64,000 bases of DNA from Eledone cirrhosa (lineage: Eukaryota): contig OZ024743.1 of assembly GCA_964016885.1 (NCBI GenBank), positions 117,924,001 to 117,988,000 on the forward strand, read 5' to 3'. The translations under genes were made by a program, and so were the position numbers. Shown here piece after piece: positions 1,611-63,960 of this stretch; positions within the stretch are counted from its first letter, which is position 1, and every line of letters starts with the position of its first letter. The notes below the pieces were generated by a model. It ran no database searches and was not told the DNA's origin. It worked only from the letters and a program-made list of their open reading frames with translations.

Positions 1611-1644
1611 GTGGTCTTTCCCATATTTTCCACTCCTTTTCAAC

Positions 1645-4600: not shown

Positions 4601-5065
4601 CCAGTTCGGGATAAACTCTACAGGCATGGAGGTGCCGTCAGCCGGGCATGTCCGAGATGCGCGCAGGGCGATGAAACCCTCCTGCACGCACTCGTCCAGT
4701 GTCCGAAAATTGCTGACTTGTGGGTTTATGTCGAACACCTGCTGTCGCTTGTAGGACGGAGCCGGCTATCATCTGACTCCATCGTGAGCATTGCCCCGCC
4801 CTCCTCCTTTAGCCGGGAAGGGCAGGCAGTTTTTATCTGTCTGGTGGCCATGGCGAAAGAGGTAGTATGCTGGACATGTTTGAAAGGGCTGAAGACGAGC
4901 ACTTACGTCTTCGGTGATGCTCTGATTGACTTTTTCAAATTTGATTTGAAAAGGAAAATCAGAGTAGAGAGGGAAGTGCTCTCTTCCCAGCATTTTGTTG
5001 AAAGATGGGTTAGAGAAGCAAGTATGGCCCGAGTGAATGGGCCTACTCTGAGTATATATCTGTAA
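1645..5065 (+). pseudogene. ORF2 (AP endonuclease + reverse transcriptase + C-terminal Zn motif), disrupted
   Basis: APE motifs ISET, VYAP, GDWN, YLDR, TDH; RT motifs KSPGLDG, FRPITLLN, KAFDRV, YADD; CPRC..H...C. Frameshifts near 1686 and 3655, stops at 2094 and 3441. Confidence 0.92.
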
Positions 5066-5313
5066 ATTAAAGGTGGAAAACTGGGAGAGGGCACTTGCCT
5101 TGGTGGTCAGGGTCACTGTGGCCTTTTACTGGGCTTTCTCCACAAATGTCCCTCCGAAGTTTCCCCCTATTGGGGAATTTTTTATTGTTATTCTTTTGTT
5201 ACATCCTCCGTTTTTGTTTTTTACACCCAGAAATGCCCATTTGTACCGTGCTGTATTGTCCTGCACTGTCTTAAATGTCTACTTTATGTAAACCCTTGTG
5301 GTTAATAAAGAAA

Positions 5314-5363
<50 letters not shown>

Positions 5364-5561: not shown

Positions 5562-7569
5562 ATGGCTAATTCACCTCTGCACCAAGCAGCTGAAAGCCTT
5601 CCTCACAAATTAACACCTCACACCGACACCACCATTGTAAATGTTACTACGTTTGCCAACACTACTAAAAATGTAAGCAGTAGCAATATTTTAAATTTGT
5701 CTCAGGCAGACATTCATTTCCCGCCATTACCAATGACTGCAGGTGTTAAAGCCTCCACCACCACCACCACCACCGCGACAACCACCACCCCCAACACCTC
5801 TGCGACAACATAAGCAAAAGAAGAAAAAAATAAATTAACTCGTGACGTCGAAATGAAATCAAGCAAAATGGACTCTTCCCCACCAAAGACGACTGACGTC
5901 ACCACCACCACAACTGAAACTAAAATTAATATTAACACAAATAACGATAGCAACAACAACAACAATGACATTATAAAAACGACCCTCAGTTTTGCCAGAG
6001 TAGCAAAACAGTTCGAAGCATTTACGGTAACTCAGGAGGATTTAGAAAATGCCAAACAAATGGTAAAGAAAGATGGGTACAGGGTCAGCCTCACCTCACC
6101 CCCCCCCCCCTCCCCACCTAAGAAAATGGAGCATCGGCGCCTATGCACCGTGTCGTATCGGACAATAAATGTAAAATCGCGCCGAGTGGAACGGGCACCC
6201 GAGTCCCAAATCCAAAAAGCTTTGGGTCATGTGTGGGCAAGAAAAACCCACATTCAGACGTGGGCAGAAATATGGAACCTTAGACGTGTTCTTTGAAACA
6301 CCAGAGGAGGCTAGAGAACACTCCATGGCCCCATTAAGAAGTGGCGACTTCACACTCGTCCCAAGCTATTGTGGCCAGAGACTCGTAAAGATCAGGGTGA
6401 CCCACGTTCCACCGGCCATCGAAATTCCCTGGCTAATAGCGGCCGTCCTCGCTGGCATCGAAGCCAACACAAAAATAATAGCAATAGCAAATGAAAAGCA
6501 GAACTGGTCTGGATCTGGGATGGAGCTCCTGATCCAAGCGGACCAAAAAAGCATTGAGGAGATCCCAGAGGTAATAGACCTCACTGACGGCAGCCACCTC
6601 ACGGTAATTGTCGAGGGCAGAAGACCTAGGTGTGTCGTTTGTGGTCAAGGAACCCACCTAAGGGCTTTCTGCCCTCAGGCTAAAAGGTTGAGGCCACCTC
6701 TCCTACCCACCCCAGTGACACAACCATCAACACCACCAGTAGCAGAGATGGCAGCAACAACTGTAGCAGCAACAACAGAAGCAACTATAACAGCAACAAC
6801 CCCAGCAACAGTATCAAAACCAACACCACCACCAAGACCAGCAAAACCAACATTCACCACCCAACGCTTCAGAACTAGCACCAGCGCCTACACCATCCAC
6901 CACGCCACAACCAAAACTAACGCCTGTGGAGGATTTTCCACTCCCCGGCCTATCACAACTGGAGACAGATTGTGACGACGAGGAGTGGGAAACGATATCC
7001 GGAAAAAAAAAGAAACCAAAAAGAAAAAAATTCTCTTCCTTCCCCCTCCAAAAACAAAATACAGAGGGAAACAAATAAACTAAGAAACAAAAAAGTTAGG
7101 ACAGATATGTCACCATCCACAACAGCATCACCAACCCCATCAACCCAAACACCAACACCATAACCATCATTAGCCCCAACACCACCATCACCTACACCAC
7201 AAAAGTCACCAAAATGCGAAACAGAAACAAACCCACAACAAACGCAAACAAAACAAAACACCCAAAACGATACACACTACACAGCATTAAATTTGAACAA
7301 CAAGCAATTATTACACTACATCCAACACAACACCAGCATCACAGAAAAAGACTACACAACAACCCCAAAATTCACACCACCTCCACACATACAAATCACT
7401 CGCATCACACAGAAAACGTACATGACACTAAAAAAAAAAATTCCCCAAAGACATCGGAGACTTCCGACAGGCACTCTCCATGAGGATTTATAAGGACACC
7501 CTTCCTGAGGGGGCCACAAGCAGTGAAAAGGATGGAAAAACCGTCCTTCCCCTACGAGAAGTAAGGTAA
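5562..7569 (+). pseudogene. ORF1 (gag-like) of copy 2, disrupted
   Basis: MANSPLH start, stop at 5811-5813, pieces 5853-6296 and 6229-6975 (CVVCGQGTHLRAFC), later frameshifts. Confidence 0.78.
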
Positions 7570-7603
7570 GTGGTCTTTCCCATCTTTTCCACTCCTTTTC
7601 AAC

Positions 7604-10600
7604 ATGACCTCACTCAGAATAGGCAGCATAAATGCGCGTGGCTTGGGGTCGTCATGGAAGCAGGGCCGCCTGCTCAACGACCTCAGGTCACTAAACATAG
7701 ATGTAGTGGCCATCAGCGAGACCAGAATCTCCGAAGCACAGGCTTTCGCACCGATCTTCGGCGGCTACGATGTGTACGCATCTCCCAGCCGTCCGGGATC
7801 GGGGGGAGGAGTTGCTGTGCTTTTTCGGAGAGGTTTGGATCTTGCCATACGGGCCATCTTCCTGGACCCAGAAGGTAAGTTGGTAGTGCTGGACGTAGCC
7901 AGCTGAGACGGGCAAGCTTTCAGGCTAGTGGCCGTCTATGCCCCGACAGGAGCAGGGCGGCCTGATTTCTTCCGGCGTCTGGAGACCTTTCTTGCAACGC
8001 CCCGCTCTTTAGTGTTAGTGGGCGACTGGAACGGGATCTTCGATGCACGCTGGGACTGTGTGGGATTAGCGGATAGGGGTGGAGGGTGCAAGAGCCTCAC
8101 CAACCTGCTCAGGAGTTTTGAACTGTCTGACAGGTACCGATTGGATTTCCCGAATGTGCCAATGTGGACTTCGACAAATCGCATAGCGTCATCCAGATCA
8201 TATCTAGATAGAGTATTTTGTAGGGAAATAGATAGGTCTAGCATAGGCTGTCCACAATTCAAGATAGTCAGCTACACGGACCACAAATTCGTGATCTGTG
8301 TGCTTGACTTAGATAGGCTTCATAGACGAGGACCCGGCTACTGGAAGCTAAACGCGTCCTTACCAGCGCGCAAGGCCTACAGAGACCGGATTAGCGAACT
8401 AGTTAAGCGGGCGTTGACGGGGGCCATCGTCAACAACAAGTGGTGGTTTGCTCTGAAAAGAGTAATTAGAATAGAGTCCATTAGGTTTAGTAAGACTTTA
8501 GCAATAGAGAAAAATAGAGCAGAGGAAGAATTAGTTAGAAAATTAGATGAGGCGCTTAGCAAAGGCATCGCGACCGACGTACTTGCGGCGTAATTGGCCC
8601 TTGACCAATTCTTCAATGCAAAGCACGAAGGCTGCGTTGTCAGAGCTAGGGTGCGTGCTCTCAGACACGAGGGGACGAAAGCCGTTCAATGGGCCCGAGT
8701 GGCGGAGGCGCGTCGTGGCAACAAAGCCACGATCCGGTCTTTGGTGACCACGACGGGCGCATGCTACTCGATCCCGGGCAAATGTGTGAAGCTTTTCAGC
8801 GACACTTCGCTCAACTGTTCGGGGGCAGTGGCGGGCCGGATCGAGGGATGTACTTTAGTGTCTACCTCGACGGACTGCCGCGGCTTTCGGCCACTGAGGC
8901 GGAGTGTTGCGAAAAGCCGATAACAACCGCTGAAGTACGGGATGCAATGACTAGTTGCACAAGGGGTAAATCGCCTGGTTTGGATGGTCTTCCCTATGAA
9001 CTTTACGAACAAATGCCAAACTTGTTCGGAGGCCTCTTGGCGGACGTCTACTGCAACTGGCAACAGAACGGGAGAATTCCCAGCTCTGTGAGCCGAGGAG
9101 CGGTGACGCTGCTGAGAAAGGATCCGAACAAGAGGGATAACATAGATAATTTTAGGCCCATAACTCTGCTAAACACAGAGTTCAAGATTTTGCCCAAGGT
9201 GCTAGCAAAGAGGTTGGCGCTTGTCGTTGGTGGTCTGGTGGGAGAGGCACAGACATGCGCCATTCCCGACAGATCCATCCACGACAACCTCCACCTCATG
9301 CGATACATCGTAGAGAGGGTAGCTAGGGAACCTGGCACGGGTGGGTCTTTGATCAATTTAGATCAGTCGAAAGCCTTCGATAGGGTCGACCATCGTTACC
9401 TAGCGGCAGTCCTGAGGGCGGCTGGCTTTGGGCCCGTCTTCAGAGGCTGGATCGCTGCCATGCACAGCAACATCTGCTCTGTAGTGAGAGTGAACGGTCA
9501 CCTTTCGGAACCGTTCAACATCATGCGCTCGGTCCGCCAAGGATGTCCCCTCTCGTCCCTATTGTACGTATTGACTCTCGAGCCATTACTGCACAAATTG
9601 GAGACGTTGAGGGGGGTCCCGCGCGAACTAGGATGCGGAAGATCCGTGTCAGCATATGCCGACGATGTCACCGTAGTGGTGTCGAACGCCAAACACATCG
9701 AGGCGATCGGCACTACACTAAGAGAATACGAAGCGGTGACAGGAGCAATGATCAACCAGGAAAAGTCAGTGGGCCTGCAGCTCGGCACCTGGAGAGGCAG
9801 GTCCATGCCGTCCAACAGCGTCGTCGGGCGCTGGACAGACGGACCGGTTAAATTGCTAGGGGTCTGGTTCGATCCAGACCTCCAGACGGACAAAAACTGG
9901 GACAAGGTGACGAGCAGGGTGGCTTCTCTTACCGAGAAATGGGCCGAGAGGAAGCTATCCCTGAAAGGTCGAGCGGAGGTGGCGAATGCGTACATCGCAT
10001 CCGTCATCTACTACCGCCTGACCGTCGTACCTTGTCCTAAACCCCGCCTGACTGCGCTGGAGCGTTTGCTCTTTCGCTTCTTGTGGAAGGGACGCGCTCC
10101 GATGGTCAGGCGGTCCATCTGCTGTCAACACCCGCTACGTGGAGGGCTGGGCATGCCGTGGCTGATGATGCGCAGACACGCGCTCAGGCTACGGCATCTC
10201 CACCTCTTCCTCGACGGTGATCAGGTGTGGTCGCCGTTTGCAAGACGCGTTTTTCCCCAGCTCGTCTCCTTGACGGAGCTGCAGTCCTGGGTCAAGCGAA
10301 GACCGAGAGGGAGCGCTTGGAGACTGGAATGTCTTCAGGCGCTCACAGCCCTCGACCAATCGGGCAATGTGATCGGTGGAAACTCCACCTTGGCGTTCTA
10401 TAGGGGATTAGTGGAGGGGAAGAGCGACGACGTACTTGGAGAAACTCTAGGCGTCGACGAAAATCAACTAGCCAATCTCTTCGGAAGGACTTTCGGGCCG
10501 GGGCCTATGGACAACTTCCAGAAATCCCTGGCCTGGCAGTGCTACCGAGGAGCTTTGCCAGTTCGGGATAAACTCTACAGGCATGGAGGTGCCGTCAGCC

Positions 10601-11023
10601 GGGCATGTCCGAGATGCGCGCAGGGCGACGAAACCGTCCTGCACGCACTCGTCCAGTGTCCGAGCATTGCTGACTTGTGGGTTTATGTCGAACACCTGCT
10701 GTCACGTGTAGGACGGATCCAGCTATCAGCTGAGTCCATCGTGAGGATTGCCCCGCCCCCTTCCTTTAGCCTGGAAGGGCAGGCAGTTTTTATCTGTCTG
10801 GTGGCCATGGCGAAAGAGATAGTATGGTGGACACGTTTGAAAGGGCTGAAGACGAGCACTTACCTCTTCGGTGATGCCCTGATTAACTTCTTTCAAATTT
10901 CATTTGAAAAGGAAAATCAGGGTAGAGAGGGAAGTGCTCTCTTCCCAGCATTTTGTTGAAAGATGGGTGAGAGAAGCAAGTATGGCCCGAATGAATGGGC
11001 CTACTCTGAGTATGTGTCTGTAA
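7604..11023 (+). pseudogene. ORF2 (APE-RT-Zn) of copy 2, disrupted
   Basis: MTSLRIGSINARGL start; VRQGCPLS, YADD; stops at 7904 and 8591, frameshifts near 8745 and 10897. Confidence 0.92.
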
Positions 11024-11265
11024 ATTAAAGGTGGAAAACTGGGCGAGGGCACTTGCCCTGGTGGTCAGGGCCACTGTGGTCTTTTAATGGGCTTTCTCCA
11101 CAAATGTCCCTTGGAAGTCTCCCCCCTATTGGGGAATTTTTCTTTGTTATTTTATTTCAACCTCTGTTTTTTTACACGCAGAAATGCCCATTTGTACCGT
11201 CCTGTATTGTCCTGTACTGTCCTTAATGTCTACTTTATGTGAACCCTTGTGGTTAATAAAGAAAA

Positions 11266-11311
<46 letters not shown>

Positions 11312-11640: not shown

Positions 11641-11937
11641 AATATTTAAACTCCACTTCGGTATCGAGTACTCTTTCTAACATCCGTTAATAACAAACGT
11701 GTATATATATATATATATATATAAATTAAAATGAAGAATTAGAAATAGAAGCTAGGACTATCCATCATCAGTGGTATACTAGCCATCATATGTATTTCTT
11801 CGCATTAGGATATAATTATCGTAGGAGAAGAGGAAATAGAGTGATACAGAGTAGTGCGATACAGATTCCTAAATGCTAATAGCCAAAGCGGAGTGTGCTC
11901 AAAGCTTGGTTAGCAGAGTTAAATATTGGAGAAGATA

Positions 11938-12117
11938 TAATTGTTTCTACTTTTGGCACAAGGCCAGCAATTATCCAGTACATTACTGGTACTTTATTTT
12001 ATCGGCCTCGTAAGGATGAAAGGCTAAGTTAACCTCGGCGGGATTTGAACACAGAATGGCAAGGGCCGTAACTCTATGCGTCAAAGCATGGCGTCCGACC
12101 TTCTACCGACACTGCCA
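11938..12117 (-). mobile_element. tRNA-derived SINE (Meta/MESC-like core), short variant
   Basis: Reverse complement of the family consensus TGGCAGTATCGGTAGA..GTTCAAATCCCGCCGAGG..CCTTTCATCCTTACGGGGTCGATAAAATAAAGTACC..GCTGGCCTTGTGCC..GTAGAAACAAT. Confidence 0.85.
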
Positions 12118-12154: not shown

Positions 12155-12310
12155 ATAAGCAAATGAATGAATGAAGGAGTTACAAGCCGTTAAAATTATT
12201 ATTTATAAACAATCATTTCTCTGAGGATCTCGTGTGGGCGAAACATTATGTAAGATTTATATAAAGAACTTGTTTTAACGGCTTGTAACTTCTTCATTCA
12301 TTCATTTGCT

Positions 12311-12313
<3 letters not shown>
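12155..12313. repeat. Fold-back element (~41 bp arms) enclosing a hammerhead motif, followed by (TA)n
   Basis: ataagcaaatgaatgaatgaaggagttacaagccgttaaaa (12155-12195) is inverted at 12273-12313 with one mismatch. Confidence 0.85.
12218..12255 (+). ncRNA. Candidate minimal type I hammerhead ribozyme
   Basis: tct-CTGAGGA-tCTCgtgtGGGc-GAAA-CATtATG-TA-aga: complete core, near-palindromic stem III, GUA site, short stem I. Confidence 0.6.
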
Positions 12314-12393
<80 letters not shown>

Positions 12394-13038
12394 GTATACT
12401 ATATATAAATACACAATCACGCACAAATATGCACACACGCACGCACGCGCACACGCACGACGCACGCATATAAGTATATATCCATATATAAATATATTTC
12501 TATTTCAATTGGTGTTTAGTTGGGAGCATAACAACAATAAAAGCAACAATACTTAGTTTTATGCTTCAGGTTTCTCAGTACAAATTCTAAGTAATAGTTC
12601 TGAAATTTCTCATGCAACAGTTCTCCACAGAAAAAAATCTGTGTTAACAATGATGTAATAAAATGTTCAGGTGATCGATTCGCTCAACTATATCGCTTCC
12701 CTACAACATATACATACTAGCAAGAGTGTTGAATGATGTATACATAAATATAGAAGAGTCTTAACATTTCGGACTCTAGGCTTCTTTTGAAGCTAGAATG
12801 ATTAATATAAGATGATATAGAAAGATTAAAGAGTGCGAATAGGAGGGAACCGGAAAATTTGTGAGTAAAAGATACGCACAGTGAGCCATTTTGGAGAGAG
12901 GCCGGGCATTTGGTACACACACACACACACACACATACACACATATATATATATAGGAGGTGAGTTTTATTGTAGCACAATAAAGCAATGCACATATCGG
13001 ATTAGTAGCACTCTACAGTTTGTAGGATTGGAGTATAA

Positions 13039-13142
13039 ATAATATAAGATCAAAAGATGGTTAAAAGAGTTCCAAGTATTTTATGAAATGCGCATAATAA
13101 AATGCTTGGAACTCTTTTAACCATCTTTTGATCTTATATTAT
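13039..13142. repeat. Near-perfect hairpin whose loop is a hammerhead 3' half
   Basis: ~46 bp arms; loop GAAATGCGCATA (13085-13096); (TA)n follows. Confidence 0.8.
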
Positions 13143-13255
13143 ATATATATATATATATATTTCGTTTCTGAATTTGTTTAGCAAGATTCTTTATCTGAAA
13201 ACGTGTGTTGAAACCGATATTGTTATACTTTGGGAGGGTCATGTTGCCAATAAGA

Positions 13256-13564: not shown

Positions 13565-13750
13565 CGGTGAATTGGCAGTATCGGTAGAGGTTTGGACGCC
13601 ATGCTTTCTAGCATAGTTACGTCCCTTTACAGTCTGAGTTCAAATCCCGCCGAGGTTAACTTTGCCTTTCATCCTTACGGGGTCGATAAAATAAAGTACC
13701 AGTAATGTACTGGTTAATTGCTGGCCTTGTGCCTAAATTAGAAACAATTA
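13565..13750 (+). mobile_element. tRNA-derived SINE, short variant
   Basis: Full consensus match; nearly identical to 38923-39108. Confidence 0.88.
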
Positions 13751-13963
13751 TTACTTATTTTATATTTGGTCTTCATTTCCGGTCTAAGCAAGTCTGACAA
13801 AAGTGTCAAATGCTTTATCTGCTGTCAGTGTCATACTCTAAACGTTAATGGTTAACAAAGTGGTCATTAGCTGAAAGAGAAATTAACAGTTAGTTTGAAA
13901 CTGCGACAACATATAGATTTCACTTATTATTATTATTGTTATTATTTTAGTATTATTTAGTTT

Positions 13964-29660: not shown

Positions 29661-30121
29661 TTAATTAGGTTTATAATATTTGAAAGTTTTTCTAATTCTA
29701 TGATTGCACGATATAATTAATTCTTGTCGCTTATTTAATAGGATATCAATAGATTTCATTATTTCAAAAAGTTCCTGGGAACATAATCTACACTCATATC
29801 TGTTATTTTGATAAGGGGTGGCCCTTTTGAGCACACTCCAGGTCAGGTTATAATCGATATTCTTTTTTCTATAATTATTAATTATTTCAGCCAAGGATGT
29901 TGTATTAGCTAATGCGGCATTTTTAAAACTGTTTTGTGGGTATTAAATCTTACTTTAAATTGGTTAGAAGTAGCTCCTATATATGAATAAGTTGAGTCCT
30001 TAGTGCTAATTTTACATTTATATACTACGTTATTAATAAGGCAATTTCCTTTTAATGGGCAATTTGCTTTGTTTCTACAGTTACAACCTTTCGTGAATAT
30101 TATATCAGGGGAGTTAGTCAA
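29661..30121 (-). pseudogene. GIY-YIG endonuclease domain of the PLE (frameshifted)
   Basis: GCNCRNKANCPLKGNC (CxCx5C), VVYKC..YIGAT..FKVRFNTHK, then CRLCSQE...LLNKRQELIISCNHR. Confidence 0.88.
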
Positions 30122-30538
30122 ATTAGGTGTGGAATTTACTCGACTTGTTGTATGTGAAAGAGATGGTGGTTTGCTGTGGTTTATTTTAGTATTATGGTTA
30201 GTTTGATGTGTTGGTGGTATATTGATGGGTGTTTTATATTTATATGCATTGTAGGCACTTACATTTTGTTGTATATTTTTGGTTGTGGAGTAGGAGAATT
30301 TGGCCGTTGATCTATTTAAAATGTGATGGTATTTATGGTTTGGCGAGAAGTTTTTCTCTAGGATAGTAAAACATTTTTTAGGGATATTATCTTTAATGTG
30401 TAGATTAAATGGACCATTATACCAAGTAACTCGTCTATTACGGTTTCGATGTTTTTTTTTTATTTGTATACGATGTATCCTGATGTTTACTAAGAGAGTT
30501 AGTATTAGTGAATTTATTACATATATGTTTAGTTAGAT

Positions 30539-31430
30539 TCACTGATTTAGGTGTTTTAGCCTGATTATTAGGAATGTTGTTAGTAATGTTATTAACATAT
30601 ATTGGAGTATTAGGATGAATGGTTTTTTAAAGTTATTATATTGTATGTGAGAAGAGGTAGAGAAATTAAGTTTTAAGTTGGTATTTTGGGGTATAGTGTG
30701 AGTGGCATTTAGGTGTTTATTTTTCATTTGGTGTTTGTTGGTAATATTGGGTTGTATGTTTGTAGTATTATTGGTACAAGGTATATATACTAATTTGTTT
30801 TTGTGGCCGCTTCTAGCTAAAGCTTCGTTATAAAAGGTCGCATTTTTATCGAATACATCCTGGTTAGATGAAAGGTTAGAAATTCTGAGTGAGAGATTAT
30901 ATGCTAGGTTTTTAAGGATAGATCTGGGGTGATTAGATTGTGAGTGTATGTAATGTAAGTTTTGGTTAGGTTTATGGTAAGGTTGGTAGATACCCGTAGA
31001 TAAGTCTAAAGTTATATCAAGGAAATTAACTACTTTACTGGTGTTTTCAAATGTAATAGTGAGACTATAATAGTCTTTGAGGAAAGTTCTAATAAGTTTT
31101 TTATTTTTTTCAATTTCCGATAGGGTAAGGTTAGTGGAAAGAAGAAGACAGTCGTCACGATATAAACCACCTTTAAGGTGGGGAAAAGAAGCATTTATGT
31201 TAAATAGAAGAAAGAGGCCCACAAGATCGGTAATTTGGGCAGAATCACTAGAGCCCATAGTAATGTCGAATAGATTACTATATGTATTTCTGGTCCAGTA
31301 TTCTTTCTGAAATTCCAGTAGTGTTTGTCTAGCGTGCGTGATAATATTAAAGTCATCCATAGTTAAGCTTGATCTATTTTTGGCAAATATCAAGGCTTTG
31401 TTCAGGAGTATGGGTGATATAGAGGGATAA
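30539..31430 (-). pseudogene. PLE reverse transcriptase (partial)
   Basis: YPSI at the truncation point, YRDD catalytic motif, thumb FLD/YHKP/SNHP. Confidence 0.88.
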
Positions 31431-31534
31431 TTCCCTGGGGTGTGTTTTCGCAGAGTAATTTCCCAGGTAATTAACTGGTTTACTAATATTAGAAATAAAT
31501 CATCTGCTTCATTTCTACAAATCGATATAGATGC

Positions 31535-38525: not shown

Positions 38526-38922
38526 TGAGAGGGGGGACTAGATAAAATATTTCAAATCAAATGTGTATAAGTTATAAGTTAAAATGTATAAATAGAGACG
38601 ATAGTGGAGGTATATCTGTTTAGTGGAACAGTAGACGATAGAATTAAATACAGACGATAATCTCCCTTTAATGAAACAGCAGACGATAGAATTAAGGCAA
38701 TTTAAATTTTAAGCATTTGCATTTTTGCCTTTCATCGTTACGGGGTCGATAAAATAAAGTACCAGTAATACACTGTCACTAGACGACTTTCAAATTGAAT
38801 TGTTGGTTCCATTTCTTTAGTATTTTCAATTGTAGTTATCTACTTAAAAAGCGTTACACGGTTAGAGACATAATTCGTAAGTTATATCTTCCCTATTAAA
38901 CCATTGCATTATTTCGCCTACA

Positions 38923-39108
38923 GGGCGGTGAATTGGCAGTATCGGTAGAGGGTTGGACGCCATGCTTTCTAGCATAGTTACGTCCCTTTACAGTCTGAGT
39001 TCAAATCCCGCCGAGGTTAACTTTGCCTTTCATCCTTACGGGGTCGATAAAATAAAGTACCAGTAATGTACTGGGTAATTTGCTGGCCTTGTGCCTAAAG
39101 TAGAAACA
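38923..39108 (+). mobile_element. Young tRNA-SINE (short variant) with 15-bp TSD
   Basis: TSD attatttcgcctaca at 38908-38922 and 39109-39123. Confidence 0.93.
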
Positions 39109-39332
39109 ATTATTTCGCCTACAATAGAACAAAAATGAAATGTTCTTTAAAGAAACAGGAATATAACTTTATAAAAAAAAAAGTTGCATCCGCTTCTTTT
39201 ATCATTGATAATTTTTTCGTTTTAATATTAATTGTTTTTTGCAGTTGTTTATATTAAAAATCTTACTGTAATATTTACTTAAACGAAGGCAAACATCTAA
39301 ACTTATAGATTAATCTTGAGCGAAGGACTAGA

Positions 39333-39980: not shown

Positions 39981-40531
39981 AATGTGCAATAAGAGCAAAA
40001 TATAACGACATTGCTCAATTATTTTATCTAATGTTGTAATAACACAAGGAAATGTTGTTTGTGTATTTTTTTTTATATTTGCTCATAGGCTTTTACAATT
40101 TCGCTCAGCCAACAACTATTAAAAAGTGAGTTGCTTAAGATAACAATTTAATCACAAATTGTTGCTATCTTTTAATACACTCCAACAAGTCATCAAATTA
40201 TGTACAATAAAAACAAATCTTATTAATTTGCTCAGGGAATATAAAGAAAATGTATATACACTGATAATTGCAATTGTATGTAAATATTTTGTTTTTGTAT
40301 TGTATATTTTATGTTTTCTATTATGTATAATATATTGATTTAATATTGATTGTTTTTTGTAGTTGTTTATATTAAAAGTCTGAAAATATTTTTATACATC
40401 TTACACTAATATTTATAAGATAATTTATAATAACAATTACATAATCTAATTACATTACAACGATAATTTATTATTAATATATATCCTGTTTAACTAGAGT
40501 TATTACAAGCGTTGCCTTAAAAAAATATTAA

Positions 40532-41486
40532 ACTAGACATGAAAAATGCGCAAGCTCAAAAGTGCCACAGAATGTTATAATAAACCTTCAAAAGTGTGGG
40601 ACTAGAGTTGTTGCTAAAAAATATTGTAATCATTATATATCGTACATTCTGTGGCATCCTTTATAAAAATAGCTTAAACCAACGAAGCCTTTATTTTTAC
40701 GCTATTTCACTTAGTTAATTCTTAGAGTGTAACATATAAAAATAAATACATCTATGTTTAATGTAATAACAGCTATAAATAATTACGTAATATTATTATC
40801 ATATACTCATAGTAACAAAATAATTGTGTTGAAACTTAATATGATGCTTATATGAACGATCAAATCTATAATGATAATTTCTTAAATATACTAATAGTAA
40901 AATAATTTAGTTATCTATTGTTACATTTTCATAGAACTATAATATTAACAATCGTATTGCATTATCAAATTTTTATCACTACAAACTTTCATATTGGAAT
41001 TACCTTAAGCCACTTATTATTACTTCGCTTTCGTACTTTTACAGCTGTAGATATTGCGCTGTATCTTATATCTAATATCAATATCTCGTGGTAATTTGCA
41101 TGAAGTGTAAAATAGGTTTATTAATAACTTTAATATGAAATGTATTATACAGGGCTGCGGAGTCGGTCAAAAATTGACTGGCTCCAACTCAGGATCCGAT
41201 ACTCCATTATTTCCTAAATTTCAGCTCCGCAGCTCTGTTATTATATTAATTAATTTATTTTATAGTTGTAAATCATATTTTTATATGTTACACTCTAAGA
41301 ATTAACTAAGTGAAATAGCGTAAAAATAAAGGCTTCGTTGGTTTAAGCTATTTTTATAAAGGATGCCACAGAATGTACGATATATAATGATTACAATATT
41401 TTTTAGCAACAACTCTAGTCCCACACTTTTGAAGGTTTATTATAACATTCTGTGGCACTTTTGAGCTTGCGCATTTTTCATGTCTA

Positions 41487-41488
<2 letters not shown>
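40532..41488. repeat. Long inverted repeat (~213 bp arms 40532-40744 / 41276-41488), (TA)n on the right
   Basis: Arms read as essentially perfect reverse complements; ~530 bp AT-rich spacer. Confidence 0.9.
41150..41237. mobile_element. 88-bp hAT-like mini-transposon
   Basis: TIRs CAGGGCTGCGGAG / CTCCGCAGCTCTG; 8-bp TSD gtattata/ttattata. Confidence 0.65.
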
Positions 41489-41830
<342 letters not shown>

Positions 41831-41900: not shown

Positions 41901-42082
41901 ATTGGCAGTATCGGTAGAGGGTCGGACGCCATGCTTTGAAACATAGAGTTACCTCCCTGTATGATCTGAGTTCAAATCCCGCCGAGTTTAACTTTGCCTT
42001 TTATCCTTACGGGGTCGATGAAATAAAGTACCAGTAATGAACAGTTTTATTGCTGGCCTTGTGCCAAAAGTAGAAACAATTA
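41901..42082 (+). mobile_element. tRNA-SINE, short variant
   Basis: Consensus match. Confidence 0.87.
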
Positions 42083-42140
42083 TATACATATATATATGTA
42101 CAATATTAATAAATGGAAACTATATTTATAAAACCATATT

Positions 42141-42205
42141 TATTTCATTATATATATTTCAAGGATACCAAGTTAAATCATGGTATGCCTTCATCAGACA
42201 AAATA
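42141..42205 (-). ncRNA. Candidate type I hammerhead (family B)
   Basis: Reverse complement of 42312-42376. Confidence 0.72.
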
Positions 42206-42311
42206 CAATATATAACAGTTTTACAAATAGATATTGACGTACCCTTTCAAAAAGGTGACCGTTGCTTTTGGAGGCCATCCGGATATCTATTTGTAAAACT
42301 GTTATATATTG

Positions 42312-42376
42312 TATTTTGTCTGATGAAGGCATACCATGATTTAACTTGGTATCCTTGAAATATATATAATGAAATA
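42312..42376 (+). ncRNA. Candidate type I hammerhead (family B)
   Basis: TATTTTGT-CTGATGA-AGGcATACCA..TGGTATcCTT-GAAA-TATATA-TA-ATGAAATA: 8-bp stem I (2 GU), long stem II, palindromic stem III, AUA site. Confidence 0.72.
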
Positions 42377-42525
42377 AATATGGTTTTATAAATATAGTTT
42401 CCATTTATTAATATTGTATATCTACTCCAAATATTTGTCGAGTGCTTTATATCAGTTATAATCGTATTTGCTTGTTGTATCCCAACAATTTAAATAGAAC
42501 TTTTGCTTATATATATGTATGTATT

Positions 42526-45295: not shown

Positions 45296-46823
45296 GATGA
45301 TAATGTTTGCAAATTGTGCTTATTTCAATCTGATACTTATTTCGTCGACCTCCAGCATATAATTGAGTTAACGTTTGCGTGAACGGAAGCAACTCAACGC
45401 ACCGCTACACAATAGGACACAGAAACAGATATGCACATACGTATAACCTAATGCATAATTAGATATGTGATAAGCTTCTGTATCGTTACCGTCTACCAAA
45501 TTTCACTCAGAAAATATCGCTTGACTCGAGAGTACAGTACAAGTCAATTGCTCGTGGTGACGTACAACGGGATTGATCCTTGAATCAAGTTTTCCTAAAA
45601 TGAATTTCTAAAGCACACGTTTATCCCTGCGTCTATATCTATGTATATAGTAGTCGCTTCAGACGATAGAAATCAGCACTCAAAATATCAGGTGGAAATT
45701 CAGTATTTATATCAAAAGTTTGAACTAACTCCGGGCTACCATTAGTTTCAAGATAAAAACACGTCGAAATTAGCACGTCTATTTTGAAAAAAGTAAAACA
45801 ATATGAAGATGGAGTTTGGTATTAGGCTCCATTGGGTGGTCCAGGTCCTGTATTGGTGTTGATAATTAATAGATGGTGCGAGGAAATTTACGTGTCTATG
45901 CCACCATTAATATCCCTAGAAACTAGCAATATGGTGAGTATGATCTCGTTAGCATCCTTGTGGGTCAATGAATCTGTTATGTCTTCTCTGCGTCACAGAT
46001 GATATTGCAAAATTGGCAACAGGTACAATACCCCTTTTACTTGTTACCAATTTTGCAATATCTGTGACATATTTTGTTAATTTGCCTATTAACCGTGACA
46101 CGTCTCCTCTCCTATTACGTGACTGCTTCATTCTTTCGTCGTGGTGTCTTCCAGATCATCTAGTTGTGGCAGTTAAACCAGCCAAAATGTTCCTCTCGGC
46201 GAGTCATTGCTATGTCTTCGTCTTCAGGTTTAACTGACCCCGAATTAAACGTCGTACAGATAATACTATACACAATAGTTTTGTCTTGTTTTCGCTTTAA
46301 TACTCCGAGGATTATTTTTGGCTACTTTGTCAGACAATGTGAGCCAGGATTGACCAGCAGTACCGTTGGTAAGGACGAAACTGTACGTCGATTTTGACAG
46401 CCCATGACCACGGAGTTACGTGCCAGTTGCCATTACTGAAAAATGTATATATATGTATGTATGTGTGTGTGCATGTATGTGTGTGTGGGTGGGTGTGTGT
46501 GGTATTGATTTTAGTGGTGATGATTTCCGGAGGGTAGTGATGCTAGTGAAGAAAGCATTGTTCAGAAACTGCAGATTCCATAATGGAATGGATGTTAGAT
46601 TTGTTTGGCATTGTAGATACTGATCATGTCGTTTCGCTCAGGTCAACAATTATAGAGTATGCATATAATAAAAAAGCATTCCAGCTGTGACCATCCCTCC
46701 CGTTATTTCAAATACACCATACCTACATTTTTAATTATGTAACCTACGATTTTGTCGAGATATGATTGCTATTCCCAGCAGGTCGAATGAGACGTGAAGC
46801 CTTCTTCACCAACTTGTAATAAT

Positions 46824-47004
46824 TGTTTCTACTTTTGGCACAAGGCCAGCAATTACGCAGTACATTACTGGTACTTTATTTTATCGACCCCGTAAGGATG
46901 AAAGGCAAAATTAACCTCGATGGGATTTGAACTCAGATCGTAAAGGGACGTAACTACGCTGGAAAGCATGTCCGACCCTCTACCGATACTGCCAATTCAC
47001 CGCA
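46824..47004 (-). mobile_element. tRNA-SINE (short variant) with ~19-bp TSD
   Basis: TSD ttcaccaact(t/g)gtaataat at 46805-46823 and 47007-47025. Confidence 0.9.
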
Positions 47005-47225
47005 CTTTCACCAACTGGTAATAATAGTATTATTATTGTAGACAAATGAGCGCATTTTGGAAGCTCTGACGAGTTGCAAATTTCATGGAAAATTTAGGAA
47101 ACTCAGACGCAGAAAATATCTGTAAATACAGTGGGTTCTTATGAGTAATAGTAAATCGGGTGAAATATTCTTATGGACACTTCGAAAGTTCGATACATTC
47201 CATAAAATATTATTTACCTTCAAAA

Positions 47226-47410
47226 GGGCGGTGGATTGGCAGTATCAGTAGAGGGTCGGAGACATGCTTTCCAGCATAGTTACGTCCTTTTACGATCTGA
47301 GTTCAAATCTCGCCGAGGTTGACTTTGCCTTTCATCCTTACGGGGTCGATAAAATAAAGTACCAGTAATGCACTGGGTAATTGCTGGCCTTGTGCCTAAA
47401 AGTAGAAACA
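47226..47410 (+). mobile_element. tRNA-SINE (short variant) with 17-bp TSD
   Basis: TSD attatttac(c/a)ttcaaaa at 47209-47225 and 47411-47427. Confidence 0.92.
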
Positions 47411-47526
47411 ATTATTTACATTCAAAATTAGTGGCTGCTAGGTGTAGTGTTGGTGATTGTGGTATTGGTGGTGAGGTGGTGGGGTTAGTGGTGGTAGTGG
47501 TGGTGGTAGTGGTGGTGGTGGTGGTG

Positions 47527-51432: not shown

Positions 51433-51465
<33 letters not shown>

Positions 51466-51466
<1 letters not shown>

Positions 51467-51602
51467 GTTATTCCGGGTTGAATCGGAGGTAACCACAGTA
51501 AGTAAGGTACTCAATACATAGCAGAGTATAAAAGTTTTAATATAGATGAGATTCTACAGGACTAGAACTGTTTCATTCATTAGAAATCATCAGGAATCGC
51601 TC
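51466..51602 (-). mobile_element. Hammerhead family A insertion in (TA)n
   Basis: Homologous to 41533-41668; (TA)n on both sides. Confidence 0.8.
51548..51600 (-). ncRNA. Candidate type I hammerhead (family A)
   Basis: gcGATTC-CTGATGA-tTTCtaatGAAt-GAAA-CAG-ttctagtc-CTG-TA-GAATCtc. Confidence 0.68.
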
Positions 51603-51716
51603 TATATATATATATATATATATATATAGTAATAATAATAAATTTGAAGACTAAAATCCAAAGAGGGCTCGATAAGGATAAATATATATCAAATATATAA
51701 GGACCGTAGAGCAAAT

Positions 51717-51853
51717 ATTTATTAAAGTAACAGATTAAAGTTTAAGCAAAGAATCGCTGCTTTCACCCTTAAGGGGATCTTCTGAAACTGAAGATCCCGT
51801 TAAGGGTGAAAGAACCGATTCTTTACTTAAACTTTAATCTGTTATTTTAATAA

Positions 51854-51855
<2 letters not shown>
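51717..51855. repeat. Fold-back element with hammerhead-like core at its centre, followed by (TA)n
   Basis: ~68 bp arms; centre gaaa-CTGAAGA-tCCCgttaaGGGt-GAAA-gaaccgattc-ttt. Confidence 0.8.
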
Positions 51856-51913
<58 letters not shown>

Positions 51914-51952
51914 GATATTAACAAATGGAAACTATATTTATAAAACCATATT

Positions 51953-52017
51953 TATTTCATTATACATATTTCAAGGATACCAAGTTAAATTATGGTATGC
52001 CTTCATCAGACAAAATA
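51953..52017 (-). ncRNA. Candidate type I hammerhead (family B)
   Basis: Reverse complement of 52691-52755. Confidence 0.7.
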
Positions 52018-52113
52018 CAATATATATCAGTTTTATAAATAAACATTGACGTACCCTTTCAAAATGCAACCGTTTCTTTTGGAAGACATCAGGATATGAA
52101 ATATCCTGATATG

Positions 52114-52149
<36 letters not shown>

Positions 52150-52561
52150 TTATCCGTAGTGTTGTAATATGAATATTATACACAGTAGATGGACAGCTCA
52201 CGTAGGGTTTGCTCGACGGTTCCAGTTGTAGTTTCAATAGTAATCCGGAGAAAATAGAAGGATTTAAATGGATACAGTTCAGTAAAAGGAATTTATTGAC
52301 ACGTGTTTCAATAACAGTTATATAACCTGAAATATTGAGTGTCTGCATAGTTAAAACTTTGTAGATAGCAGCTGTTTTCAGGTTATATAACTGTTATTGA
52401 AACACGTGTCAATAAATTCCTTTTACTGAACTGTATCCATTTAAATCCTTCTATTTTCTCCGGATTACTTTTGAAACTACAACTGGAACCGTCGAGCAAA
52501 CCCTACGTGAGCTGTCCATCTACTGTGTATAATATTTATGTTACAACACTACGGATAATAC

Positions 52562-52592
<31 letters not shown>

Positions 52593-52690
52593 TTCATATC
52601 AGGATATTCCATATCCTGATGTCTTCCAAAAGAAACGGTTGCATTTTGAAAGGGTACGTCAATGTTTATTTATAAAACTGGTATATATTG

Positions 52691-52755
52691 TATTTTGTCT
52701 GATGAAGGCATACCATAATTTAACTTGGTATCCTTGAAATATGTATAATGAAATA
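52691..52755 (+). ncRNA. Candidate type I hammerhead (family B)
   Basis: TATTTTGT-CTGATGA-AGGCATACCA..TGGTATCCTT-GAAA-TATGTA-TA-ATGAAATA. Confidence 0.7.
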
Positions 52756-52873
52756 AATATGGTTTTATAAATATAGTTTCCATTTGTTAATATCGTATAT
52801 ATATACCGTATATATATATATATTTATATATATATATTTGTATTTATATATATAGGAAAAGAGTCAGGACCCC

Positions 52874-52954
52874 GACGACTGAGCTCCGGCCGTTTCGACA
52901 GCTAGATCCGAACAGTTCGGATCTAGCTGTCGAAACGGCCGGAGCTCAGCCGTC
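52874..52954. repeat. GC-rich hairpin (40 bp arms) heading a (TA)n-associated repeat
   Basis: 1-nt centre at 52914; contains GAAACGGCCG; downstream 52970-53045 resembles 56862-57030. Confidence 0.85.
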
Positions 52955-53059
52955 ATGGTCTTGCCTCCTCCTATTATCCACTCTACTACCCTAAGGATCG
53001 AGTACGTTAAGGTCCACCTGGTATCTTGCCACAACACCTTCTCTATTACATACATAAAT

Positions 53060-57100: not shown

Positions 57101-57648
57101 TAAATGGAATAGAATGAAACGAAATTTCATTTCTCATTCTTAGTACGGGACTAATATATACATGCTACTGTACGTCTGTATACATATATGCATGTACGTA
57201 TACATACATACATACTTACATTTAAGTAAGTACCGTACTAAGAGTGAGATATGAAATTTTGATTCATTCTATTCCATTTATCGTTTTCGGTGTGCCCGGC
57301 CGACTGAAAGGCTGCTCAGCCGTTAATATGTATAAGAAAAATATAAACTTTAAGACGTTCAACCATCTGGCAGGAAAGTATACGATGCTGACGAGAGCTA
57401 ATAAGCTTGAAACTAGTACATCGTTCCTGTGTCAGTGTTGATCAAAAGGGTGACGTGGTTGCCTAAACACTGTACAGCGTAATTCGGGCTGTTTGTTTGT
57501 TTACAAACAAACAAACCGAGAATTATAATAAATGTTCGGTAAACCGATACGTGCATATATATATGTGTGCAGGTATGTATATATATACATACTACTGTAC
57601 GTCTGTATACATATATGTATGTACGTATACATACATACATACTTACAT
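57101..57648 (+). mobile_element. Retrozyme-like unit: 427-nt monomer with 68-nt terminal direct repeat and 5' inversion
   Basis: DR 57154-57221 = 57581-57648; IR 57101-57148 / 57233-57280; hammerhead inside; (TA)n on both sides. Confidence 0.65.
57382..57424 (+). ncRNA. Minimal type I hammerhead ribozyme
   Basis: ACGATG-CTGACGA-GAGCT-aata-AGCTT-GAAA-CTAG-TA-CATCGT: 6-bp stem I, 5-bp stem II, ACTAGT palindrome, GUA site. Confidence 0.85.
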
Positions 57649-57732
57649 ATATATATATATAAAAACAAATAACGAAACGAAATTAAATTTCGTTTCGTTT
57701 GTAACTCACTTTTGTATGACTGACGCTTAAAC

Positions 57733-58304
57733 AATTAAGTTAAAAATGTACATCCACATATGTATACTGAAATACTAGTATGCATATGAATACACACACG
57801 TGTACATATGTAGATGTACCGAGTTTTTCACTGGTCACTTTACTGTGAGTGTCCAGCTATTCTGTATGTAAACACACAGACAAACCGGTTTTTAGAGTCA
57901 TACTGGTTTTTGAGGAAACACCTTTCCTCTATTCTCCAGAAAGCCAGACAAGGAATATTGGACTAGTTTCGATGTTGTTACATCTCATCAGCAATATTTA
58001 CCTATCTTCCGGCCTTTCTAGAGAATCGTAAAAGCACATATCGTTATATGCTTTTTCTATGAAAATTAGTAGTGGGCAGACTAATTTGTCTGGCTTTCTG
58101 GAGAATAGAGGAAAGGTGTTTCCTCAAAAACCAGTATGACTCTAAAAACCGGTTTGTCTGTGTGTTTACATACAGAATAGCTGGACACTCACAGTAAAGT
58201 GACCAGTGAAAAACTCGGTACATCTACATATGTACACGTGTGTGTATTCATATGCATACTAGTATTTCAGTATACATATGTGGATGTACATTTTTAACTT
58301 AATT
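57733..58304. repeat. Fold-back element (219 bp arms 57733-57951 / 58086-58304) with a hammerhead in the spacer
   Basis: Arms read as perfect reverse complements; (TA)n on the right. Confidence 0.93.
57954..57998 (-). ncRNA. Minimal type I hammerhead ribozyme
   Basis: AATATTG-CTGATGA-GATG-taacaa-CATC-GAAA-CTAG-TC-CAATATT: full consensus core, G10.1-C11.1, GUC site. Confidence 0.9.
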
Positions 58305-58357
58305 ATATATATATACATATGTATATATGTATATATATATATATATTTATGTATGTA

Positions 58358-58418
<61 letters not shown>

Positions 58419-58501
58419 ATATATATATATATGTATATATATATGTATATATATATATATATTTATGTATGTATATATGTATATATATATGTATATATGT
58501 A

Positions 58502-58533
<32 letters not shown>

Positions 58534-58647
58534 GATATAGATACATGTTTATATATATATATATGTATGTGTATATGTATATATATATATATATATGTTT
58601 ATATGTATATATATATATATATATGTATATCTATATATATATGTATA

Positions 58648-58716
<69 letters not shown>

Positions 58717-58753
58717 GTGTGTGTGTGTATATATATATGTGTGTATATATATA
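58305..58753. repeat. Degenerate (TA)n/(TATG)n tract
   Basis: Direct inspection; it produces the spurious N-terminus of ORF 58278-60185. Confidence 0.95.
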
Positions 58754-60193
58754 CGACATGAAGGCTTGGGTTAATGTCGGAGGTAACATGTCGGAGCCTA
58801 TCTCAGTAAAAAATGGAGTGAAACAGGGGGATATTCCAGCACCGACCCTGTTTGCCATATACTTTGCAATGGTTTTCTGTGTTGCATTCAGGAATTGCGA
58901 GCATGGTGTTTACATCCGATATCGAACCTCAGGCAGCATATTTAACATCAGGCGCTTTGCTGCGAAGACAAAGGTATTTACATCGGTCATAAGAGACCTC
59001 TTGTATGCAGATGATTGCGATCTTGTAGCGCACACAGAGAGTGATATGCAGCACATTTTGAATGTATTTTCTGACGCTTGCACTGCCCTGGGTTTGACTG
59101 TCAGTCTCAAGAAAACCGTCGTCATGTACCAACCTGCACCTGGTAGGCAGTACACTGAACCAAACATCTATGTGTATGGCAAACGACTTGGAGTGGTTGA
59201 TCAGTTTGTCTACCTGGGAAGCACTGTCAATCGATACGGCAACCTTGACAGTGAAATCTCACTTAGGATTAGGAAAGCAAGTGATGCTTTCGGAAAGCTA
59301 GAAAGGCGACTCTGGGGTCGGCGAGACATATGCAGGAGGACAAAGGTAAGGGTGTACAGGGCATGTGTACTCTCTTGTCTTCTTTATGCCTGCGAGACCT
59401 GGGTCACATATCGACGCCACCTTAGGCAATTGGAGCGTTTCCATCAGATGTGTCTCAGACGGATACATGGCGTTCGCTGGAGGGACCACATCAGTGATGT
59501 CGAGATTTTGGAAAGCTCTATGTGTGACAGTATAGAAGCTCTTGTGCTTAAGCAGCGACTCCGTTGGAGTGGTCACCTTGCCAGGATGAAGGATTCTAGA
59601 ATACCAAAACAACTCTTCTATGGAGAGTTGGTTAAAGGAAAACGACCGCCACATAAACCAAAAAAGAGGTATAAGGATTCCTTGAAGGCCTCTCTGAAAG
59701 ACGCTAACATCTCTGCTGATACATGGGAAAATATTGCTGCTGATCGTAATAAATGGAGAAAGACTGTATATGAAGGAAAAGTTGCCTTTGAGGCATCTCG
59801 AATCGCACACGAGAAAGTAAAGCGGGACGTGAGGAAGGGTATTGCTGTTGCACTTCCAGACGGCGAGGGTCCTCCTATGTTTCTGACATGCAGCGTCTGT
59901 GCGAGACTCTGCCTAAGCAAAGCTGGACTCGAAAGTCATCTTCGCAGTCATAAAGTAAGACCAGTGGTTGACTACCAGGCTGCTGTTGGAGATGCTACTC
60001 ATCATGCTTGCCAAACATGTGGTAGAGAATGTAAATCAGCAGGAGGACTCAAGCGACATGCAAAAGTACACGAACTCCAACCACAGCCGACTATTCCCAG
60101 TAAATGTTTTGGTTGCCGACTCTGTGCAAGACATTTTAGATCATTGGCTGGGCTAAAAAGCCACATTCGATCGCAGCACTGTTAGTTGCTATC

Positions 60194-60667: not shown

Positions 60668-61032
<365 letters not shown>

Positions 61033-63830: not shown

Positions 63831-63960
63831 AAGTGGTTACACAACAGTTAGGTCACCATACTGAGAGCAATTGTTTCTCCTTAGCGGATCCTCCTCTAAG
63901 GATCCGCTAAGATGAAACAATCGTTCTCGGTATGGTGAACTAACTGTTGTGTAACCACTT
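63831..63960. repeat. Fold-back element (~62 bp arms) after (TA)n with hammerhead-like centre
   Basis: aagtggttacacaacagttag / ctaactgttgtgtaaccactt; centre CTAAGGA-TCCgctaagat-GAAACAATCGTT, opposite arm GAAACAATTG. Confidence 0.8.

Follow-up and report, generated by a model that had tools for sequence, protein, structure and literature searches.

A young head-to-head insertion of an abundant hammerhead-bearing repeat family in Eledone cirrhosa

The insertion and its flanks

The window analysed here is a stretch of 64,000 nucleotides of the Eledone cirrhosa genome (contig OZ024743.1, positions 117,924,001 to 117,988,000 of the forward strand). Positions 57659-58304 hold an insertion of a repeat family, which we call family A, made of two head-to-head arms whose 3' ends point outward into (TA)n. 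Its extent was determined by BLAST against a natural 466-nt unit of the family and by inspection of the edges. The same unit served as reference for numbering, position 1 being the first base past the predicted ribozyme cut. The long-end arm (57659-58088, minus strand) covers unit positions 339-466 and then 1-302, without 303-338. The short-end arm (58086-58304, plus strand) covers positions 10-228, and the two overlap by 3 nt (TTG, 58086-58088) at their joined 5' ends. As the initial annotation had reported, the locus contains a perfect 219-bp fold-back, the short-end arm being the exact reverse complement of 57733-57951 (219/219 bp). The interval it gave for the element, 57733-58304, was too short: the left arm reaches 57659, so that a tail of 74 bp had been missed. 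This tail (57659-57732, minus strand) lies between the short (228-233) and the long (300-302) end sites of the unit and contains a 13-bp hairpin in the predicted fold.

The left (TA)n target tract (57649-57660) is common to the short end of a neighbouring element, and the right flank is a (TA)n-rich tract (58305-58745); a target-site duplication cannot be read in (TA)n. The neighbour is a copy of a second family, family B, at 57101-57648, and the (TA)n flank to its right received the family A insertion. The family B copy shows homology to family A over the length of the unit, carries a hammerhead core at 57388 on the plus strand with a GUA site, and is itself long plus short head-to-head, with a long-end stub on the left and a short end on the right. 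Several family B loci displayed the same arrangement as family A.

Within the family A element (57659-58304), neither the list of open reading frames nor a Pfam scan revealed a reverse transcriptase (RT) or GIY-YIG reading frame. With a single hammerhead and 36 nt of the unit (303-338) missing, the window copy is not expected to give unit-length RNA on its own. Its arms show 0 differences in 219 positions (upper bound <1.4%), while 19 other insertions span 0 to 4% arm divergence. The insertion is thus young relative to its own family, which bears out the recent origin proposed initially, although arm identity allows only rough dating because the arms begin identical, from one haplotype.

The hammerhead motif and its repeat family

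The minus strand of 57954-57998 holds a type I hammerhead. Stem I pairs 57998-57992 with 57960-57954 (AAUAUUG/CAAUAUU, 7 bp); the core CUGAUGA, starting at 57991, is followed by a 4-bp stem II (GAUG/CAUC) with the loop UAACAA and then by GAAA, and stem III is the palindrome ACUAGU. The predicted cut, at a GUC site, falls between 57961 and 57960. The core, the three stems and the GUC site had been listed correctly from the sequence at the outset. In the consensus fold the motif extends to 57948-58005 (minus strand) through a distal stem I, which pairs 58005-58001 with 57953-57948 past an internal loop; in the predicted fold of the whole window copy, the 3' strand of this distal stem is taken by the fold-back arm. 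The Rfam model HH9 matched 57938-58009 on the minus strand with 38.9 bits and an E-value of 2.3e-7, below its gathering score of 52, and no Rfam match in the 64-kb window was at or above a gathering score. The miRNA-family matches in the window were (TA)n artefacts.

The stems vary in a way that maintains pairing. In 20 distinct variants of the two families, picked for diversity out of 53 with a search pattern that fixed the core and loop II and left the stems free, stems I and II were paired in 93.5% of cells, compared with 20-50% in slid controls, and 7 of the 10 stem I/II pairs had changed on both sides. Likewise, the 53 distinct variants from the fetched loci kept their stem pairs, with several double-sided changes. 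The hammerhead is not due to chance, and homologues do preserve its fold.

The term 'textbook minimal hammerhead', used in the initial annotation, is accurate in its noun and not in its adjective. Canonical type I hammerheads are described in PMC4209133 as having a helix I of ~6 bp with an internal loop, a helix II of 4 bp and a helix III of 1-2 bp with a palindromic loop, and the min-HHRs of Penelope-like elements (PLEs) as having a helix II of 7-8 bp, a helix I of 4-5 bp and neither helix III nor loop 3. The window motif has the CUGANGA...GAAA...UH core with helices I and II closed, an internal loop in helix I, 4 bp in helix II and a palindromic loop on helix III. In this motif and its variants, helix II measures 4 bp, helix I measures 6-7 bp and loop 3 is present, none of which agrees with a min-HHR. 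Judged by these features, the window motif is a canonical type I hammerhead and not the min-HHR of PMC4209133.

Cleavage of the window motif likely depends on dimers, as had been suggested initially and as is reasonable from the modelled energies, because the palindrome pairs between copies and closure of stem III within one molecule is costly. The ACUAGU duplex between two molecules is predicted at -4.8 kcal/mol, and closing stem III within one molecule would shift the predicted fold energy from -5.0 to +0.9 kcal/mol, a cost of ~6. The axolotl hammerhead with the same 1-bp stem and palindromic tetraloop needs dimers (PMC7229834). That motif, HHR_Amex1, and the newt satellite hammerheads share the 1-bp helix III and palindromic tetraloop with the window motif and are efficient only as dimers; they differ from it in sequence and host.

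The motif had been presented as if it were singular, which it is not. We counted copies by pattern searches across the 3.0-Gb genome with reversed-pattern controls. The 31-nt hammerhead core gave 1,633 exact matches and an internal read-through motif 7,327, and a loose hammerhead pattern covering the two related families gave 37,843, with 0 in the reversed-pattern controls. The locus is therefore an ordinary one among tens of thousands of related hammerheads. Many matches are arrayed with a period of 462-470 nt, corresponding to a unit of ~466 nt. Family A is thus a tandem non-coding unit with one type I hammerhead each, low in GC, dispersed over many loci and without LTR-type structure; the window copy represents part of one unit. 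Arrays reach 15 units in one locus, L040, where two alleles recurring at a 4-unit period mark a duplication after insertion. In a further family A insertion (G000:C1:5738089-5752751), the short-end arm comprises ~30 tandem units and the long-end arm less than one.

By sequence criteria family A is a non-LTR retrozyme, and the locus represents a new family of a known kind with a PLE-like insertion. Like metazoan non-LTR retrozymes, it has a non-coding, low-GC tandem unit with one type I hammerhead each, occurs as single copies and arrays, coexists with PLEs in the genome and has a highly self-paired predicted circle (z of -9.1 for the circular 466-nt unit against 60 shuffles). The unit length slightly exceeds the 150-450 bp given by Cervera and de la Pena 2020 (PMC7229834) and falls inside the 51-972 bp of Li, Clavereau and Pollet 2026 (10.64898/2026.07.22.740005). 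The former report circular retrozyme RNA and propose that PLE enzymes make tandem cDNA from it; the latter link retrozymes to PLE pLTRs, propose mobilisation by PLEs, and found cleavage in vitro for 1 of 9 predicted retrozyme dimers. Cleavage and circles have been demonstrated for metazoan retrozymes and are predicted for family A. The sequence link between retrozymes and PLE pLTRs seen in the 2026 preprint had no counterpart in family A among the PLE loci examined. Conversely, head-to-head arms, fixed end sites and a tail are features of family A not described for retrozymes in the accessible parts of these two papers.

Two fixed ends and the arms between them

To describe the insertions as a family, we scored 50 loci selected by internal motifs, the window locus included. 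Forty had arms on both strands, head-to-head, and 10 had matches on one strand, several of these with short stubs of a second arm. Two of the two-armed loci ran off the fetched stretch, leaving 38. In 33 of them one end lay at unit positions 300-303 (long) and the other at 227-233 (short); none combined two long or two short ends, and in the other five one end was disrupted. Among 54 loci selected by their long end, 24 had a short end as partner and none a second long end, the remainder being 19 with a stub or no second arm, 7 that ran off and 4 others. Twenty short-end loci, hand-picked for having no listed long-end partner and so enriched for exceptions, comprised 10 with a long end, 1 with a short end, 8 with a stub or no second arm and 1 other. 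Among 33 facing pairs in the coordinate lists, 31 combined a long with a short end, against 15.1 expected under independence; the sole long-plus-long pair proved to be two separate insertions (L166 and L007). The exceptions to the pairing rule are L182, which is short plus short, and L181, which is so by its coordinates. L202 and L203 look like a single duplicated insertion.

Genome-wide, the ends numbered 2,222 long and 1,104 short, a ratio other than 1:1 that was obtained with a narrower short-end pattern, which misses subfamilies and stub arms. The one-sided tail measured 70-74 nt, and the flanks of the window copy and the family loci were AT-rich or microsatellite sequence, (TA)n. Two loci with wide gaps between the arms were considered as possible autonomous elements and rejected, as the gap of L047 (read from its translation) and that of L101 are later LINE insertions.

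A second arm could in principle arise by fold-back, the first cDNA pairing with itself and being copied back, and the tail then resulting from later nuclease trimming; self-priming was raised in PMC3846280 and nuclease trimming or resolution in PMC8557442. The window copy would permit this, its short arm lying wholly inside the long arm with a 3-nt overlap, and so would 23 of the 32 insertions tested, where containment in one direction is allowed (15 + 8; L101 was dropped from the 33 for its LINE insertion). Fold-back would also explain identical haplotypes without a shared template. However, a single fold-back needs one arm to lie within the other, and in 9 of the 32 insertions this holds in neither direction, which argues against it. 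These nine include L092, whose arms share no sequence, and the very young L045 and L043, whose 0/521 and 1/949 arm differences leave little time for later change. The loss of units after insertion could mimic a failed fold-back, since arrays can change after insertion (L040). Two further observations sit poorly with copying back: the short-end arm is the longer one in 17 of 33 insertions (the long-end arm in 16), and the arms of a chimeric insertion, L116, come from different elements. Overall, we regard fold-back as an unlikely source of the second arm. The lengths of the two arms look independent of each other.

The inner ends follow no comparable rule. They are scattered over the whole unit, almost every insertion having a junction of its own. 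Of the 167 arms, 133 extend over the cut site. At the centres of 40 loci, 22 had overlaps of at least 1 nt, 5 were blunt and 13 had inserted bases, which suggests microhomology, the overlaps being taken from BLAST edges. These data bear on a reading in which the locus is an independent ribozyme hairpin, or a fold-back of MITE type, with an inverted arm that serves to regulate or position the hammerhead. The predicted hairpin does keep the hammerhead folded within its loop, and the inverted arm does start ~9 nt 3' of the predicted cut, as the initial annotation had noted. The distance is correct, but its link to the ribozyme did not hold up: inner ends fall within the first 15 nt past the cut in 7 of 167 arms against 5.2 expected (p 0.27), and the 9-nt distance is probably in large part a coincidence. 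Within the first 25 nt the counts are 15 of 167 against 8.7 (p 0.03), a slight point for a ribozyme-centred arrangement; any excess just past the cut is weak. Variable centres largely refute this reading, the inner junction being spread over the unit. Some fold-backs have no hammerhead at all (L092), and the two outer ends do not match each other as terminal inverted repeats would. We consider it very improbable. Rather than a part of the ribozyme, the fold-back is a usual by-product of Penelope-type insertion.

The two arms of an insertion also share their haplotype. We found 120 rare alleles fixed in both arms and a single one fixed in one arm only, in a test that required two units per arm and that few loci were able to fail; 86 of the 120 come from 4 loci of one diverged subfamily and 34 from 15 other loci. 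In L037, 10 segments show 0 differences and carry two private alleles. One homogeneous source array or gene conversion could also give shared alleles. Older arrays (L002, L036, L038, L041) retain unit-specific mutations, so later homogenisation appears slow.

Because arms are not always contained in one another, share a haplotype and look independent in length, the simplest reading is that each target strand is primed once in an insertion, at two fixed sites on a single RNA that runs uninterrupted through the cut, most likely a circle. The same two-site priming might instead have taken place on a linear multimer that is read from a homogeneous array and left uncleaved, in which case the ribozyme would be dispensable for insertion and long arrays would partly grow later by unequal exchange. 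Such a template would fit the later 4-unit duplication in L040 and a report that insertion persisted in hammerhead mutants, with unprocessed RNA as the principal substrate (PMC11167929). It fits less well with the combination of slow homogenisation and insertion-specific alleles fixed in all units of both arms, which points to a bottleneck of a single unit, and with the compensatory changes that have preserved the hammerhead fold in families A and B. We therefore rate the linear multimer as a rather doubtful, though serious, alternative to the circle.

Penelope-like elements and the proposed origin

A search for GIY-YIG sequences gave 10,595 candidates, of which 50 loci were examined. The reading frames at these loci carry RT, with a GIY-YIG match as well in 10 of the 13 scanned. 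At the PLE loci L097, L090, L093 and L100 the arms likewise lie head-to-head within (TA)n, and a tail is present at one end only. Three loci contained long PLE frames with RT matches, measured from stop to stop: L081:4309-7122 on the minus strand (938 aa), L082:2988-5519 on the plus strand (844 aa) and L083:1775-5062 on the plus strand (1096 aa). From these frames, the three are candidates for currently active elements.

Published PLE insertions have inverted 5'-truncated arms, often with a 30-40 bp tail at one end, and microsatellite targets, and were ascribed to nuclease resolution or self-priming (PMC8557442 and PMC3846280). Insertions of family A resemble those of endonuclease-positive PLEs in their head-to-head 5'-truncated arms, partial tandems, one-ended tail and (TA)n or AT-rich target, and differ from them in lacking a reading frame and in a tail of 70-74 nt instead of the reported 30-40. 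Non-autonomous multicopy forms are mentioned for Chlamys (MRC1) in the same papers. Family A adds counts of the long-plus-short pairing (33/38) and of the insertions for which fold-back fails (9/32). In the open-access main texts we found no end-pairing count or fold-back test for retrozyme insertions; older subscription literature on Penelope lies outside that scope, as do supplementary figures on insertion structure and life cycle, which may bear on novelty.

The window copy is thus very probably a young, incomplete insertion of an abundant ~466-nt non-LTR retrozyme, placed head-to-head in (TA)n, likely by a PLE reverse transcriptase and GIY-YIG nuclease acting in trans. Arrays would be transcribed, and neighbouring hammerheads would pair via ACUAGU and release unit-length RNA, which would be ligated into a circle. 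A PLE protein, probably a dimer, would nick both strands of the self-complementary (TA)n target; two positions of the same RNA would be primed, ~302 of the unit by one 3'-OH and ~228-233 by the other. The two cDNAs would extend for independent lengths, often over the ribozyme cut site and through several rounds of the unit, before their 3' ends were joined, blunt or with an overlap of a few bases, and the gaps filled in. The 219-bp fold-back would then be the stretch that happened to be common to both cDNAs.

An alternative in which the unit is a mere terminal repeat (pLTR) of an autonomous PLE appears improbable. The window copy would then be severely 5'-truncated and the arrays would be stacked pLTRs, with no separate RNA cycle of a retrozyme. 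All hallmarks of the insertions are indeed PLE-like, and the examined GIY-YIG candidates amount to 50 of 10,595. Yet long arms run into further units, up to 15 in L040, and not into a reading frame, and no reading frame contiguous with a family A unit in the same arm was present in 191 partly overlapping loci or in those 50. PLE coding sequence occurs in 13 of the 191 loci; only L103 and L116/L172 have it next to a family A arm, and there it lies in the opposite arm. The 3' ends of the examined PLE frames did not match the unit in sequence, the stretch downstream of 20 PLE frames was unlike it, and the unit's hammerhead is canonical as in retrozymes rather than a PLE min-HHR.

The two kinds of element are joined in L116:2653-6389, the only clear chimera among the 191 loci. 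Here a long-ended family A arm faces a 2.4-kb PLE arm. In this second arm, 42 nt of family A precede a 5'-truncated PLE, which stops at its own short site and lacks its tail of ~40 nt. This PLE has a CxxxxCxxC motif before the nuclease, as given for the Neptune and Nematis clades (PMC8557442). A deletion fusing two neighbours may be an alternative origin of the chimera. L103 was not counted as a second one, its PLE side being degraded with no clear 3' end, nor was L197, which a TA tract separates from its PLE neighbour. The window itself contains a short 3' end of the PLE family found in L116, at 60807-60922 on the minus strand.

Taking the circular template further, we tentatively propose, as a possibility somewhat short of even, a double rolling-circle priming in which a PLE dimer would occupy two sites ~70 nt from each other on a single retrozyme circle and nick both (TA)n strands, each subunit copying the same circle from its own site. 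A complete event would then always leave a long-ended arm and a short-ended arm that share a haplotype and vary independently in length, the PLE 'tail' would be the spacing of the subunits on the RNA instead of a trimming product, and L116 would mark the PLE family with the Neptune-type linker motif as a retrozyme mobiliser. A precedent comes from the Anolis Poseidon element PAc, for which Frangieh et al. 2024 (PMC11167929) described in vitro two RT start sites that bound the tail, with both strands cut and extended. In the proposed model, family A resembles PAc in its two internal RT start sites downstream of the hammerhead, the cutting and extension of both strands, the AT-rich target and the predicted dimer. 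For PAc no difference in start site was seen between the strands, and one of each kind per insertion, the pairing seen in family A, is not reported in the accessible parts of that study; PAc is moreover autonomous, with start sites within its reading frame, whereas family A is non-coding.

How retrozymes are mobilised in animals and how PLEs acquire inverted arms with a one-sided tail are open questions in the papers cited. As a family with over 2,000 ends to count and an RNA that is small and defined, family A offers a direct genomic link from retrozymes to PLE-type integration. What it adds is evidence, drawn from many insertions of one family, for priming of both strands at two sites of a single template; this evidence argues against a simple fold-back and makes the unit a compact substrate for studying such priming and rolling-circle reverse transcription in vitro.

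Other repeats in the window

Further fold-backs were found in the window. Those at 42093-42424 and 51858-52853 belong to another family and have hammerhead cores on opposite strands (42197 minus and 42320 plus; 52009 minus and 52699 plus) with the palindrome AUAUAU; the larger encloses another fold-back at ~52147-52560. Short fold-backs bounded by (TA)n lie at 12155-12313, 13034-13147, 40525-41496, 41530-41720, 51460-51601, 51630-51856, 52861-52967 and 63831-63960. Some of them have degenerate hammerhead-like cores, and several recur at other loci of the genome. It appears that PLE-type insertions accumulate in the (TA)n tracts, one nested in another.

Two tandem LINE copies, 92.5% identical, occupy 72-5360 and 5990-11311 and have endonuclease, RT and zf-RVT matches, and a 5'-truncated LINE frame at 58743-60182 encodes RT followed by C2H2 zinc fingers. 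On the minus strand, 29909-31534 contains open frames of 207 and 331 aa that had no Pfam match. A dispersed repeat of ~190 bp, SINE-like by appearance, forms an inverted pair at 46818-47416 and has further copies at 11921-12117, 13565-13752, 38922-39115 and 41901-42091.
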